Part shown: one piece after another, positions 54,662-59,439 of the stretch
Layout: the number at the start of each line of letters is the position of its first letter
Position numbering within the stretch: the stretch's first letter is position 1
Source of the DNA: an uncultured Verrucomicrobiae bacterium
Lineage (GTDB): Bacteria; Verrucomicrobiota; Verrucomicrobiia; Palsa-1439
NCBI GenBank assembly: GCA_963812605.1
Contig: CAWEWF010000014.1
Location: 320,001-384,000, forward strand
DNA: 64,000 bases
Reading direction: 5' to 3'
The notes under the pieces: model-generated
Seen by the model: only the letters and a program-made list of their open reading frames with translations
Databases searched by the model: none
What the model was told of the DNA's origin: nothing
Program-made: the position numbers and the translations under genes

Positions 54662-57600
54662 TTACTCCTGTAAGTCGCTCACATCACCCACACCAAAATA
54701 CGCGCAATCCGGATGATGAAAAACCAGCGCGCTCACGCTGGCCTCCGGGTCCATCATGAAGCCTTCGGTCAATTGCACGCCAATCTCCTCCGGCTTTAGC
54801 AGTTTCCAGATCCCGGCTTGGTCTTCCAACGCGGGACAGGCGGGGTAGCCGAAGCTGTAGCGCCGGCCTTGGTATTTGGTCGTGAAACGGTTGATCATCG
54901 TCATATCGGTGGGATCGGGGAAACCCCAGTCCTCGCGGATGCGGCGATGCAGCCACTCGGCGCAGCCTTCGGCGGTCTCGATGGCGAGCGCTTGTAGCGC
55001 GTGCGATTTCAGGTATTCGCCCTTCGCCTTGTATTCCTCGGCGCGTTGGCGGATTCCCGTGCCCGCGCCAACGACGAAGAGAGCGACGCTGTCAGCCCGT
55101 TTCTCGCCGGAGGCCCGTTATACGAAGGCATAACATAGTCGGACAGGCACAAGCCATCGGGCTTGCGCTGGCGGTGGAAGCGGAAGGTGTGTATTGGCGC
55201 GGGCGTCTCGCCCGTGATTGTCTTCAATCGACCGGCGGGCGGGACGCCCGCCCTCACTGATGAATACAGCTTGATTGAATTCCCATCCGCTTCCGCCTCG
55301 AAAAACTGCCACACGGCTTTCACCTTCATGAACTTGGCGGCTTCGGCTTGAACGTCCTCGACGAGGTTGTGCAGCTCCAGCGCTTTCGGGTCGCGGGCGG
55401 CGAGCGCTTTCTCGTAGTTGGATTTGAAACCGAGATGGCGGACGTAGAGCATCTGCGGGTTGATGTATTCCCAAATCTCGCGAAGTTGCGGCACATCGCG
55501 CACCTTGCGCTCGGGGTAGGGCGCCGGCAACGGCGGCACGATGCGCACGCGTGAACTGCGCTTGGTCGTCTCGGGATATTCCTCCACCTTTTCCACCACG
55601 GCGGCGACGGCGACGGGCTTGTGTTCCGTCATCACCTTGTCGCGCTCGGCGGGGTCCATCAATCGGTTCATGATCGACAGGCCCGTCATCGCGTCTTTGC
55701 AGTACACCACGACGCGCTCGTAGCTCGGCGAAATCCGGCTGCGCGTGAACTTGTCGCTCAACGCCGCGCCACCCACCAGCAACGGCACGGTGATGCCCGC
55801 GTTTTTGAGGTCACCCGCGGTGATGACCATTTGCTGCGCGCTTTTTACCAACAGGCCCGACAAACCGATGGCGTCAGGCTTGTGCTCGCGATAGGCCTTG
55901 ATCAGTTCTTCGGGCGCTATCTTGATGCCGAGATTGATGACGTTGAAGCCGTTGTTCGAGAGAATAATCTCGACGAGGTTCTTGCCGATGTCATGCACGT
56001 CGCCCTTGACGGTGGCGAGCAGGACCTTGCCCTTCGTCGAGTCGGCTTTCTTCTCCATGAATTGTTCGAGGTGCGCGACGGCGGCCTTCATCGCCTCGGC
56101 GCTTTGCAGCACTTCCGCGACGATCAACTCGTTGGCGTTGAACAGGCGGCCGACCTCCTTCATCCCGTCCATGAGCGGGCCGTTGATGATGTCCAGCGGC
56201 GCGGCTTCCTTGAGTTTCAAATCGAGATCGGGAATGAGCCCTTCCTTCGAGCCTTCGAGAATGTAATTCGCCAGCCGTCCGTCGAGCGGCAGATCGGAGG
56301 TCTTTTTCTTCACGCGGCTCTCGGCGGTGCGGAAATGCTCATTGATCGCCGCGATGTGATGCTGGTTGATCGCCGCGCGCTGTTCCTTGGTCTGCTCGCG
56401 GTAATCACGCGGCGTGTCGAGACCTTCAAATGGGTAATTCCACAACAGATCCTCGACGAACTTCCGTTCCTTTTCGGGGATGGTGGCGTAGCGTTCGAGT
56501 TTTTCGGCGTTGACGATGGCGAGATCGAGCCCCGCCTTGGTCGCGTGATAGAGGAACACGGAATTGATGACCTCGCGCGCCGCGGGCGGCAGACCGAAGC
56601 TGACGTTGCTCACACCGAGAATGGTTTTGCAGCGCGGCAACGCGGCCTTGATCAGCCGCACGCCCTCGATGGTCTCGACGGCGCTGCCGATGTAGTTCTC
56701 GTCGCCGGTGGCGCAGGGAAACACGAGCGGGTCGAAAATGATGTCTTCCTCGGCGATGCCGTGGGCGACGCAATAATCGCGGGCACGCTGGGCGATGGCG
56801 AGTTTGCGTTCGCGCGTGATGGCCTGCGCCTGCTGCTTGTCCTCGTCAATCGAGCCGATGACGATTGCCGCGCCGAATTTCTTCACCAGCGGCAACACCT
56901 TGTGGAATTTTTCCTCGCCGTCCTCGAAGTTGATGGAGTTGATGATGCTCTTGCCGAGGCAATACGTCAGCGCCCGCTCGACCGACTTGTAATTCGTCGA
57001 GTCGATCATGAACGGCACTTTGACCTTGTGAATGACCTTCTCGTAAAAGCGGTCGATGTCCGTCAATTCGTCGCGGTCGGTGTTTTCGAGGTTGATGTCG
57101 ATGATATGCGCGCCGCTCTTGACCTGGGCGCGCGCGATCTCCGTCGCTTCCTCGAATTTTTCGTCGGTAATCAACCTCTTGAACGCGCGCGAGCCGACTT
57201 CGTTGGTGCGTTCGCCAACGATGAGCGGACGGTTGTCGTCGGTCGCTTCGACGAGTTCGATGCCGCTGTACCATGATTTGCGTTGCGCGCGGAACTTGCG
57301 CGGGTCCTTGCCCTCGACCATCTGCGCGATGGCTTTGATGTGCGCCGGCGTCGTGCCGCAACACCCGCCGACGATATTGAGCCAGCCGTTTTTGACAAAG
57401 CGCTCGATGGCCGACGCGAGCGAGGTCGGTGTTTCGAGATACAGGCCGTCGTCATTGGGCAACCCGGCATTTGGGTAACACGAAACGCGCGTGTTGGCCA
57501 TTTGACTGATCGTGCGGAGGTGGTCCGTCATGAATTCCGGACCCGTCGCGCAGTTCAACCCGATGCTGAGCAAATCAACATGCTGAAGCGAGGCGACGAG

Positions 57601-58257
57601 TGCATCCGCCGCTTGTCCGGCAAGCATGGTCCCAGTCGGCTCGATCGTGCCCGAAACCATAATCGGCAGTTGGTAGCCCAATTCATCGAATGCTTTCTGG
57701 ATGCCGATGAGAGCGGCCTTAATGTTTCGCGTATCCTGGCAGGTCTCAACGAGCAGAATGTCCGCGCCGCCCTCGGCGAGCCCACGAACCTGCTGGTAGA
57801 AATTCTCGATCAACCCATCGAATGTCACGCCACCCGTGACGGTGATGGCTTTTGTGGTCGGCCCGATGGATGCGGCAACGAAACGCGGTTTGTTCGGCGT
57901 GGAAAATTCCGCGGCAGCCTGGCGAGCGATTTTGGCGGCGGCGACATTGATCTCGTGACATTTGTCCGCAAGATTGTACTCCGCAAGGACCAGCGGCGTG
58001 CTGCCAAAGGTGTCGGTTTCAACAATGTCCGCGCCGGACGCATAATATTCGCGGTGAATGTTGCGAATAATGTCTGGACGCCTGAGCACGAGTATTTCGT
58101 TACAACCTTGCAAGGCAGGGCCGCCGAAGTCGTCCTCGGTAAGCAGTCCGGTTTTCTCTCGCTCCTGGATCATCGTCCCCATCGCGCCGTCGAGCACGAG
58201 GATGCGTTCATCCAGCAACGACTTCAGCAGTTTGGTTCTATCCGTGCGTTCGCTCAT
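54662..58257 (-). CDS. metH: cobalamin-dependent methionine synthase (frameshift near 55100)
   Basis: LDGAMGT, GLNC, GGCCGT, VGERTN, KGDVHDIGKN, SGLL, RYSFGYPACP, PEASVSA. Confidence 0.97.
55194..55258. repeat. REP-like palindromic doublet inserted in-frame in metH
   Basis: ttggcgcgggcgtctcgcccgtg ... gcgggcgggacgcccgccctca; translates within VRAGVPPAGRLKTITGETPAP. Confidence 0.7.
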
Positions 58258-58334
58258 GTGAAAACCAAGGGCGATACATTAGCAGCCGGGCTGCCGCAAA
58301 ACAAGCGGCGGCCCGGACTGCGTTTGCGGTTCGT

Positions 58335-58526
58335 TCAGATCTGGAAGTCCAACGGGAAATCCAGTGTTTCGGCCAATTCCTCAAGGCGGCCCGCGCCTTG
58401 TTGCTCCATAAAAGTGGCTCTGAGGGACGTGGCCGTTGGCTTTGAAGCGTCGTCTGCGGGTGTCGAAGTGCGGCTGGTTTCGTGTTGGACGACTGCGACT
58501 GTTGGTTGTGTTGCTGTAACGTACAT
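58335..58526 (-). CDS. 63-aa unannotated protein downstream of the SAM riboswitch
   Basis: ATG preceded by GAAAGGAA RBS; located between the riboswitch terminator and metH. Confidence 0.6.
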   Translation of the reverse strand: MYVTATQPTVAVVQHETSRTSTPADDASKPTATSLRATFMEQQGAGRLEELAETLDFPLDFQI

Positions 58527-58560
58527 GATGCGTAATTCCTTTCGGTTCACGCATCAGGAC

Positions 58561-58598
58561 AAACAAAAACCGCGTCTCGCATCAAGCGAAGCGCGGTT
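58561..58598 (-). terminator. intrinsic terminator / expression platform of the riboswitch
   Basis: Minus strand aaccgcgcttcgc-ttgat-gcgagacgcggtt followed by tttgttt. Confidence 0.75.
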
Positions 58599-58602
58599 GC
58601 GC

Positions 58603-58734
58603 GGAGCTTATTGTTCGAACGGCCATTTGCCGCTCGCACATCGTTCAAGGCTGACTGCCCTGAGCAAGCCACCGTAGGCGCTCCCGCCTCGGTTGGCAGG
58701 CCCCAATCCATATCGGGGTCATTCCTGATGCTGC
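58603..58734 (-). ncRNA. SAM-I/IV-type riboswitch
   Basis: Minus strand: P1 gcAUC..GAUgu, J1/2 AGGA, P2 ccccgau/auugggg, P3 GCCAACC/GGUGGC with GGAG loop, P4 ucagggc/gccuuga, P5 cgagcggc/gccguucg, and a 3' GCUCC able to pair the P3 loop; upstream of metH. Confidence 0.8.
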
Positions 58735-58811
58735 CCGAAGTATACGGATTTCCGTCCGATTTGCAAGCAAAACTTGCGGAGGACAATAATTGCGTGGAAA
58801 ATGAAGAAGTC

Positions 58812-59439
58812 ATGAGAGCGACCATCTTCGTAACCGCGATACTTCTGAGCGTGTGCGTCTGGGCGCGCGGAGAAGGGAAGGAGGCAGCCATGCCACAATT
58901 CACATTGACCAGTCCGAGCTTTCGAAACAGCCAACCGATACCCGCCAAGCATTCGTGCGAGGGTGGAGATGTGTCGCCTGAACTCAAATGGGAAGGCGCA
59001 CCGGCGGGAACAAAGAGCTTTGCGCTGATCTGCGACGATCCCGATGCGCCGGGCGGAACGTGGGTGCATTGGTTGATTTACAATACTCCAGGGGACACGA
59101 CAGAACTGCCGCTTGGGATTCGGATGAAAGATGATGTTGTCGTGGCAGCTTGGTCACCATCTCAAGAAACCGGCAGGATGGCAGGTCCTTGCCGTCTCCG
59201 GACTGCTGTCGGAAAGCTGCCGGGTGCCAAGCAGGGTGTCAACGATTTCGGGAAGGTGGGCTACGGCGGTCCGTGTCCGCCGCGGGGGCACGGCGTGCAC
59301 CATTATCATTTTCGGTCTGTATGCATTGGATACGGAACTAAAGCTGGCGCCGCGCGTGACGCGTCAGCAACTTGATGCCGCGATGAAGGGACATATCATC
59401 GCGGAAACGGAGCTGGTTGGAACGTTTCAGCGGGAGTGA
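58812..59439 (+). CDS. YbhB/YbcL (PEBP / Raf kinase inhibitor-like) protein (frameshift near 59315)
   Basis: LTSPSF, DVSPEL.W, DDPDAP, WVHW, GYGGPCPP, H.YHF, LYALD. Confidence 0.9.

Follow-up and report, generated by a model that had tools for sequence, protein, structure and literature searches.

Organization of the metH leader

In an uncultured Verrucomicrobiae bacterium, a small open reading frame (ORF) of 63 codons lies between an S-adenosylmethionine (SAM) riboswitch-like leader of the SAM-I/IV type and metH, the gene for cobalamin-dependent methionine synthase. The locus was analysed in a stretch of 64,000 nucleotides (nt) of contig CAWEWF010000014.1 (assembly GCA_963812605.1), hereafter called the window. 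All coordinates are window positions, and the leader, the small ORF and metH are all on the minus strand. Genomes and loci used for comparison carry G and L numbers, respectively. The features are as follows.

58739..58766, minus strand: promoter-like site, with a -35 element TTGCAA (58766-58761), a 16-nt spacer and a -10 element TATACT (58744-58739)
58738-58600, minus strand: structured RNA, with the match to RF01725 (SAM-I/IV) at 58736-58600
58603..58731, minus strand: SAM-I/IV aptamer, with P1 58731-58727/58642-58638, P2 58722-58698, P3 58697-58668, P4 58665-58643, P5 58636-58616 and the pseudoknot PK-2 (58684-58680 with 58607-58603)
58560..58597, minus strand: intrinsic terminator, with stem 58597-58569 and U-tract 58569-58560 (UUUUUGUUUG)
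58526..58559, minus strand: start-sequestering hairpin, in which the box UCCUGAUGCGU (58559-58549) pairs with ACGCAUCA (58533-58526), including the A of AUG
58335..58526, minus strand: 63-codon ORF and its TGA stop, with codons 3-38 variable, the last 25 residues conserved and the end LDFPLDFQI
58322..58334, minus strand: C/A-rich, G-poor spacer of 13 nt after the stop (mean C 0.34, G 0.15 over 17 loci)
58282..58321, minus strand: GC-rich hairpin of 16 pairs with a 7-nt loop and no U-tract, 25 nt upstream of the metH start
54662..58257, minus strand: metH, with its ATG at 58257, 77 nt from the ORF stop

A first-pass annotation, made from the letters of the window alone, had claimed that the first gene under the switch is a 63-codon ORF with its start inside a hairpin, and that metH follows only after a 77-nt gap; this layout was confirmed. 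The small ORF and metH appear to form a two-gene unit under a SAM-I/IV OFF riboswitch, and we see an even chance that the first product is a free microprotein. The interest of the locus lies in a young, orphan and clearly selected 63-codon gene placed between the switch and metH in one Verrucomicrobiae subclade.

Coding potential of the small ORF

The ORF was recovered as 17 distinct coding sequences, with 63 codons in 12 of them, 62 in three, 61 in one and 59 in one. It was intact at all 17 loci, and every insertion or deletion was in frame or compensated. The ratio of nonsynonymous to synonymous substitution rates (dN/dS) was 0.145 in the last 25 codons (133 pairs) and 0.19 in the first six; the differences by codon position numbered 490/380/1084. 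Codon models gave an omega of 0.436 for the whole ORF (p=7e-14 vs omega=1); the value fell to 0.163 in the last 25 codons (p=5e-16) and was 0.596 in the remaining 39 (p=1.5e-4). Changes at the third position predominate, and Arg47 is encoded by five different codons and Leu48 by four. A Shine-Dalgarno (SD)-like AGGA precedes the ORF at 16/16 loci, and the stop codon is TAA or TGA across loci. Thirteen columns are invariant in 32 sequences (M1, Q7, F39, E41, R47, L48, D56 and P58-I63), and the divergent member P0033 retains F.EQQG.GR..E...TLDFPLDFQI. Judged by these substitution patterns, the ORF very probably encodes a protein.

It is conceivable that the frame is open by accident in DNA inserted into the leader, and that its conservation reflects RNA constraint or short time and no function of a peptide. 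The module is indeed young and present in one subclade only, the +1 frame is also open in four of five species, and several synonymous sites of the last nine codons never vary. However, omega is significantly below 1 in every partition, the predominant third-position changes leave the amino acid unchanged at Arg47 and Leu48, and all indels of the 17 sequences are in frame whereas the adjacent spacer varies in length (74-77 nt). Furthermore, a synonymous divergence (dS) of about 0.9 corresponds to ample time for stops to arise. The codon tests already disfavour an accidental frame, and we consider it very improbable.

The last nine codons (58362-58338) form a tandem repeat at both levels, as LDF-P/LDF-Q in the protein and as GGAYUUCC, twice, in the RNA. 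The synonymous sites of L55, D56, F57, F61 and Q62 are invariant in the 17 sequences, with dS about 0.9 elsewhere, and a 5-bp stem between CUGGA and UCCAG is conceivable. The tail may be under an additional constraint at the RNA level or reflect a codon preference.

Sequence and predicted structure of the product

The product starts with a semi-conserved M-[YS]-[VA]-T-A-T-Q, passes through a variable stretch rich in Thr, Pro, Gln, Ala and Arg (residues 9-38), and ends with F-x-E-Q-x-G-x-G-R-L-E-E-L-A-E-T-L-D-F-P-L-D-F-Q-I (residues 39-63). The hydrophobic moment is highest over residues 42-51, and AlphaFold2, given a 32-row alignment, placed helices at residues 32-43 and 45-54 with low confidence. 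Substitutions in the helix are coupled, with EELAET in some sequences vs EEWAAA in others. The C-terminal half is a predicted amphipathic helix followed by LDFPLDFQI and is strongly constrained; the N-terminal half is weakly constrained. The division into a variable N-terminal and a conserved acidic and hydrophobic C-terminal half, which had been proposed from the single sequence, is therefore real in the alignment.

Distribution and origin of the ORF

In a collection of 5.8 billion proteins, the peptide was represented by 31 clusters, 24 of them of 62-64 amino acids (aa) and seven of 71-76 aa; the longer ones stem from an upstream alternative start. The 31 clusters carried no name and no Pfam domain, and the Pfam search gave 0 families at E<=1. 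HMMER, run against 1.84 billion representatives of any length, returned only four proteins of 61-72 aa, which are the family itself, and no distant relatives or fusions. The DF.LDF motif occurs once in an intact frame of such kind in the genome. The searched literature contained no paper on this motif and none uniting Verrucomicrobia, a SAM riboswitch and methionine synthase.

A peptide profile search found the ORF in 5/45 family genomes, all of one genus, as a single copy each that is invariably placed in the metH leader. A further 14 loci came from metagenome contigs, with the terminator motif upstream of the ORF in 13/13 of those with upstream DNA. Twelve of the metagenome loci extend far enough to show metH, at 74-80 nt downstream of the ORF in 11 cases and at 215 nt in the remaining one. 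Of the 20 loci retrieved with the leader DNA, 13 have metH within about 60 nt of the terminator and no small ORF. The ORF-bearing stretch of about 255-290 nt aligns only in G012, G004, G006 and G005, and G002 has its start at a contig end. Because metH stands directly behind the riboswitch in most relatives, the ORF module is a lineage-specific insertion and no general feature of the switch. The refuting condition named in the first-pass annotation, decay of the small ORF by stops or indels in relatives that keep the switch, was not borne out: the ORF is intact and under purifying selection wherever it is present. Most relatives with the switch are without it.

In the MetH tree, seven non-bearers of the same genus form a clade (100/99) and all outgroups are without the ORF. 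Of the bearers, the three whose metH is complete cluster with a support of 79/77 and do so in 84% of the bootstrap trees. One insertion in the ancestor of the bearers is the simplest history. On this distribution, the ORF appears to be a genuine young orphan gene, gained by the metH leader a single time and in a single subclade.

The part from the U-tract to codon 2-3 matches the expression platform of the paralogous riboswitch copies L011 and L026, which precede genes for TPR proteins. The DNA homology to these loci ends after codon 2-3, and the rest of the ORF matches nothing there. An origin from the paralog-controlled TPR genes was rejected (hhalign probability 0.1% vs the TPR N-termini), and no second copy of the ORF DNA was found in 41 genomes.

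The gene context also bears on whether the peptide could be a precursor or a substrate, for instance a ribosomally made peptide modified by a SAM-dependent enzyme, and not a binding partner. Such a role would suit a variable part followed by an invariant C-terminal motif and a peptide under SAM control. However, no modifying enzyme, protease or exporter adjoins the ORF, whose neighbours are metH downstream and a divergent ORF upstream, and the same two-gene context was seen in 12/12 of the metagenome loci that reach far enough. With no Pfam match and a motif found once in the genome besides, we hold a substrate role to be highly unlikely.

The SAM-I/IV aptamer

RF01725 was the sole credible Rfam match in the leader, with 36.3 bits over model positions 1-99 of 99 in a permissive scan (E=3.9e-4 on 701 nt; 5.5e-4 genome-wide). 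The Rfam gathering score of this family is 41.1 bits, which the window copy does not reach, and no family attained its gathering score when the full window was compared with Rfam. The score is low because the hairpin from P3 to the P1 3' strand (P4) and the long P2 and P5 loops are modelled as insertions. The SAM-I and SAM-IV models gave no match at the aptamer site. Support from covariance models for the SAM-I-clan assignment of the first-pass annotation was thus confined to the SAM-I/IV model, with a score below the gathering score. In the family as a whole, 18/45 genomes had a SAM-I/IV match at E<=0.01, and six matches in 5/45 genomes passed the cut-off, with scores of up to 46.5 bits; copy L011 scored 41.6 bits. 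DNA homologous to the leader is present in 17/17 other genomes of the genus and in two further genera, or 20/41 genomes overall.

Covariation in the aptamer was counted on 23 copies from relatives, with slid pairing partners and 500 shuffles as controls. Pairing held in 94.3% of cells vs 36-45% with slid partners, 0/500 shuffles attained the observed values, and 23/44 pairs change on both sides. Changes on both sides were seen in 7/8 pairs of P2, 8/9 of P4, 3/9 of P3 and 2/4 of the outer P5, which is 93% paired. PK-2 (GGAGC/GCUCC) consists of five pairs, is formed in 23/23 copies and includes one covarying pair, CG in 16 copies and UA in seven. The core elements CCAACC, GGUGG and GAUGUGCG are invariant in 23-26 copies, indicating that the P1-P2-P3-P4 junction with a SAM-I-like core is present. 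P2 is a single continuous covarying hairpin with a loop of variable length and sequence, in which no conserved partner for PK-1 can be seen. The fold that had been drawn from the letters alone, with its P1-P4 junction, P5 and PK-2, was thereby borne out. The P3 sequence GCCAACC/GGUGGC, which had been read as a compensatory swap of the usual core, is in fact the consensus of the Rfam SAM-I/IV model itself.

The architecture agrees with that of published members of the class. The crystallised SAM-I/IV RNA, with its sequence given in PMC5393176, likewise carries a hairpin in the position of P4, which is therefore not a new element, together with an outer hairpin and a 3' tail that pairs with the P3 loop. 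According to PMC6890682, members of the class have P4 and an unsplit P2 and are without PK-1. The absence of an internal loop or kink-turn from P2, and of PK-1, is likewise stated in PMC2864571 and PMC6890682. The earlier claim that P2 is without a kink-turn and PK-1, and that P4 and PK-2 are present, is in line with what these sources give (PMC6890682, PMC5393176). The window RNA shares with the SAM-I/IV env87 RNA (PDB 4L81) the four-way junction, the SAM-I-like core, the unsplit P2, the outer P5 and PK-2. With RF01725 in general it shares the consensus P3 and the position before a methionine gene.

Collectively, the covariation and the class-specific match make it almost certain that the RNA is a SAM-I/IV riboswitch. 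The fold and the metH context suggest SAM as the putative ligand, with discrimination against SAH. The aptamer is an ordinary, somewhat divergent SAM-I/IV aptamer and adds only sub-threshold members to a known class.

A predicted two-tier expression platform

The stem and U-tract of the terminator are seen in the fold and are kept in all 26 aligned copies, with 100% pairing and almost no variation, in agreement with the U-tailed terminator (stem 58597-58569) of the first-pass annotation. Because the stem hardly varies, its pair count is uninformative. A simple terminator scanner found 0 terminators in the region; the interrupted stem made it overlook this one. The P1 5' strand is complementary to the apical terminator, CUUGAUGC, and the two pair in folds of transcripts cut just before the terminator 3' strand. 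The complementarity is found in 20/23 copies, and at most 15/300 shuffles were as good. Two registers are used by the metH-type and the paralog-type leaders, GCAUCAG with CUGAUGC and AUCAGGAAC with UUCCUGAC.

The start of the ORF lies inside the UGAUGCGU/ACGCAUCA hairpin, whose local fold has -17.0 kcal/mol, and the SD-like AGGA (58540-58537) is in the hairpin loop, 10 nt upstream of the ORF. The box that follows the terminator is also complementary to the P1 5' strand, GCAUCAGGA. In the window this duplex has -16.8 kcal/mol, and 4/1090 other windows of the locus were as good. Most copies gave -12 to -21 kcal/mol, and the rank control found at most seven of about 1000 other windows as good in 6/9 loci and 28/997 in a seventh. 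Apparent compensations were seen in G010p2 and G022, two copies aligned out of register, and are backed only by duplex energies and rank controls.

We infer from these complementarities a two-tier OFF switch, in which a single strand would block termination and then uncover the start codon. At high SAM, the aptamer would close (P1, PK-2), the terminator would form and most transcripts would stop at the U-tract; in those that continue, the box CCUGAUGCG would pair with ACGCAUCAUG and hide the start codon of the small ORF. At low SAM, the free P1 5' strand (GCAUCAGG) would first pair with the apical terminator as an anti-terminator and then with the post-terminator box as an anti-sequestor, and the transcript would be completed and the ORF translated. 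The OFF logic itself we regard as probable, with good confidence. Unlike the SAM-I/IV members compared above, the window copy scores below the cut-off and combines a terminator with a start-codon hairpin, one strand (P1 5') apparently serving both.

The leader is covered by assembled contigs of four metatranscriptomes, each from a different study. Two of these contigs, near-identical and 203 nt long (58513-58713, two differences), run from the aptamer interior across the terminator to 12 nt into the ORF, and are weakly compatible with read-through transcripts. The ORF body had no contig cover at >=90% likeness in metatranscriptomes X1 and X4, a result that carries no weight.

An extra GC-rich hairpin (GGCCGNNCG...CGGCC) is present within the loop of the start hairpin in L006, L007, L041, L043, L048, L049 and L052. 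It sits between the box and AGGA (window equivalent 58548-58541), and the outer pairing is intact.

The spacer, the GC-rich hairpin and metH

The sequence of the spacer varies across loci and its composition is mostly kept, with the exception of L052 (C 0.31, G 0.46). The GC-rich hairpin that follows is paired in 94.6% of cells (15 sequences) vs 20-55% with slid partners, shows changes on both sides in 2/16 pairs, and is conserved above its flanks. Its candidate functions are pausing, processing or stabilisation of the metH message, and protein binding. A pairing between the ORF interior and the 3' strand of this hairpin was dropped, as it is not conserved in G012. At L052, an insertion of about 140 nt follows the ORF stop, so that the stop is about 155 nt from the spacer and the hairpin; the hairpin still adjoins metH, and the ORF is intact. 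The insert (L052:884-1030) comprises two tandem copies of a hairpin-forming repeat of about 45 nt and a further hairpin, and a 20-nt core of the repeat is found once in the genome of the window.

The window copy of metH is interrupted between 55123 and 55096, which leaves two open frames, of 1089 and 151 aa; the break falls in the C-terminal activation domain. The gene is intact in G012 (1208 aa) and G005 (about 1208 aa), and is broken at other places in the metagenome-assembled genomes G001, G003, G015 and G051 of the family. The frame break is probably an assembly error rather than the mark of a pseudogene.

The stretch between the switch and metH can also be read as a cis-acting translated leader, a possibility that the first-pass annotation had not raised, in which translation, and not a free protein, is what matters: at low SAM, ribosomes would cover a C-rich, G-poor stretch on which Rho loads, and RNA polymerase would thereby get as far as metH. 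In detail, the last 25 residues could slow or arrest the ribosome as a nascent chain and so tune the effect, and the GC-rich hairpin could be a pause or processing element. The composition fits a Rho-loading site, since the variable part of the ORF has a mean C of 0.39 and G of 0.22 (17 sequences), with a median skew in the top 2.5% of genome windows, and the spacer is mostly skewed likewise, while the conserved block is without skew. The genome encodes Rho (695 bits, above the cut-off), and the gene is confined to the metH leader with a conserved block that is exactly the last 25 residues before the stop. In addition, with energies computed against an assumed anti-SD, an SD-like site is present at metH of non-bearers (median -5.4 kcal/mol, n=12) and at the small ORF (about -4.0 kcal/mol in 16/16 loci) and mostly missing at metH of bearers.

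On the other hand, 63 codons is long for a metabolite-sensing leader, and the first six codons, although under purifying selection, would lie outside the ribosome tunnel. The GC-rich hairpin has no U-tract, the stop codon is not fixed (TAA/TGA), and the ORF is intact at L052 although its stop is far from the spacer and hairpin. The C-rich composition may merely follow from a linker rich in Thr, Pro, Gln and Ala. Weighing both sides, a purely cis-acting leader is a serious but less favoured possibility.

A second Rho-like frame of 439 aa (G000:C14:582924-584024, L088) scored 475 bits, below the cut-off; the bona fide rho is on C13. A methionine-sensing leader-peptide attenuator was also considered and rejected: the window peptide has only M1 and M40, position 40 being A, M or V over 17 loci, and the ORF does not overlap alternative terminator and anti-terminator hairpins, the hairpin after it being without a U-tract and its candidate pairing with the ORF not being conserved in G012.

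A free microprotein as the most likely product

The most likely reading is that the ORF yields a free microprotein which takes up its fold on a partner and is produced exclusively alongside MetH, at low SAM. Such a product would act in trans, a step for which we judge the chances to be balanced, and MetH or the methyl cycle would be the obvious, though unproven, candidate for the partner. Three observations favour a free protein: selection acts on both ends of the 63-residue chain, the ORF of L052 has remained intact despite the separation of its stop from the spacer and hairpin, and the helix substitutions are coupled.

Several observations weigh against this reading. The ORF was never found away from the metH leader, which fits action in cis at least as well as action in trans, and the C-rich, G-poor composition of its variable part, and mostly of the spacer, fits a cis role. 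The metH genes of bearers have a median SD energy of +0.5 kcal/mol, with 8/12 at +0.3 or above, and are thus mostly without an SD-like site. Their MetH proteins show 0 bearer-specific changes at otherwise conserved positions and three bearer-specific sites in total. The AlphaFold2 model of the peptide has a mean predicted local distance difference test (pLDDT) score of 57.6 and a predicted template modelling (pTM) score of 0.18, and therefore no stable fold is predicted for the peptide alone. With regard to the switch, the covariation analysis of the terminator and of the P1-5':box helix revealed conservation only, with 57/500 shuffles as good, and the box is absent from 2/9 tested copies. Finally, the expression evidence consists of assembled contigs only, which give no ends or levels and may include DNA carry-over.

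A model of such low confidence would be expected of a peptide that needs a partner to become ordered, or of one that never folds. In a complex prediction, residues 325-1208 of the G012 MetH (24 rows) and the peptide (26 rows) scored 0.00 vs a mark of 0.32, without controls; the Hcy domain (1-324) was excluded, and the score weighs neither for nor against binding. The idea of MetH as the partner is neither supported nor excluded by these data. The free-protein and the cis-acting readings are not mutually exclusive, and of the two the former, at about even strength, is ahead of the latter, which is possible but less probable. In addition, metH expression probably benefits in cis from translation of the ORF.

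A bolder proposal is that the 63-residue product is a newly born SAM-starvation signal protein whose invariant tail, made up of acidic residues and then LDFPLDFQI behind a Pro/Thr/Gln-rich linker, docks on a conserved cellular hub; candidates for the hub would be MetH and a protein that reads the tail of FtsZ. In this genome, the C-terminal peptide of FtsZ is EDLDVPTFIRR, and it too follows a Pro/Thr-rich linker. However, it has only L-D-hydrophobic-P in common with LDFPLDFQI, which is expected by chance many times per proteome. We regard this proposal as improbable. If it were true, the peptide could keep MetH active when SAM for MetH reactivation is scarce or, in the case of FtsZ-tail reading, division would slow as methyl groups run out; the riboswitch would then gate a trans-acting regulator, rather than only an enzyme.

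Comparison with known systems

In the tnaC-tnaA system, an arrest peptide at the stop codon masks a Rho-loading site. The metH leader resembles it in having a conserved C-terminal end followed by a C/A-rich, G-poor spacer and the regulated gene, in a genome that encodes Rho. It differs in the 63 codons of its ORF, in a stop that is not fixed, and in L052, where stop and spacer are parted by about 140 nt; the likeness is one of sequence features only. The mgtL ORF in the Mg2+-sensing mgtA leader of Salmonella is reportedly far shorter and acts through ribosome position rather than by way of a conserved product. As in mgtL-type leaders, a small ORF here separates the riboswitch from the main gene, whose expression could depend on translation of the ORF. 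In contrast, 25 residues of the present ORF are under strong purifying selection, and the ORF comes after the expression platform, not inside it. The mgtCBR leader is a case related to the mgtL type (PMC8092293). A small protein that modulates a larger co-expressed enzyme is MtrR of Methanosarcina mazei (PMC13370731). It is reported as a protein of <100 residues with a proposed role in tuning a methyl-transfer enzyme, in which the present product could resemble it; the analogy here rests on size and gene neighbourhood alone.

Promoter region, divergent ORF and other SAM riboswitches

The site at 58739..58766 has 9/12 matches in a consensus scan, and TATACT is present in 5/5 aligned genomes, which makes it a candidate promoter. 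Between its -35 and -10 elements lies an inverted repeat, ACGGAAATCCGT (58746-58757), with the core GGAAATCC; it is retained in 4/5 aligned genomes and absent from G005. The core is the reverse complement of GGATTTCC, itself repeated at the ORF end, which may be coincidence. On the plus strand, a divergent ORF (58611-59375) combines a signal-peptide-like start, following an internal ATG, with a GGPCPPRGHGVHHYHF motif, which we take to be typical of PEBP/YbhB-type proteins.

Elsewhere in the genome, a classic SAM-I riboswitch (75.9 bits; G000:C10:176941-177076, locus L027) lies upstream of a 415-aa ORF. By eye, we presume this ORF to resemble a threonine-synthase-like PLP enzyme with an N-terminal Cys cluster. 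Given a SAM-I riboswitch at L027 and a SAM-I/IV riboswitch at metH, the genome therefore uses two SAM-clan classes.

Extra copies of the SAM-I/IV element stand before non-methionine genes at L011, L022-L024, L025 (two copies) and L026 in genomes G002, G009, G010 and G011, and none is in the genome of the window. These copies have the PK-2 variant GGAGU/ACUCC and their own terminator register. The genes behind them encode clusters of 243-306-aa TPR proteins (Pfam TPR_12, TPR_1 and others) with the start MCExNxQ and an IQIIGG motif, a protein of 189 aa that matches Peptidase_M41 weakly, and a Cys-rich protein of 167 aa. For a SAM switch, such a gene set is an unusual regulon.

Significance

The usual view of riboswitches is that of direct valves on enzymes and transporters; here, a well-understood SAM switch gained a new first gene within one genus. 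An orphan microprotein gene now holds the ribosome-binding signal of the operon, ahead of methionine synthase. The locus thus offers a datable gene birth or capture within a regulatory leader, with insertion-free sister species as natural controls. It further provides a compact system in which to ask whether ORFs in leaders work as proteins or as devices that regulate by being translated, and the cis and trans answers are separable by simple recoding and reporter experiments.

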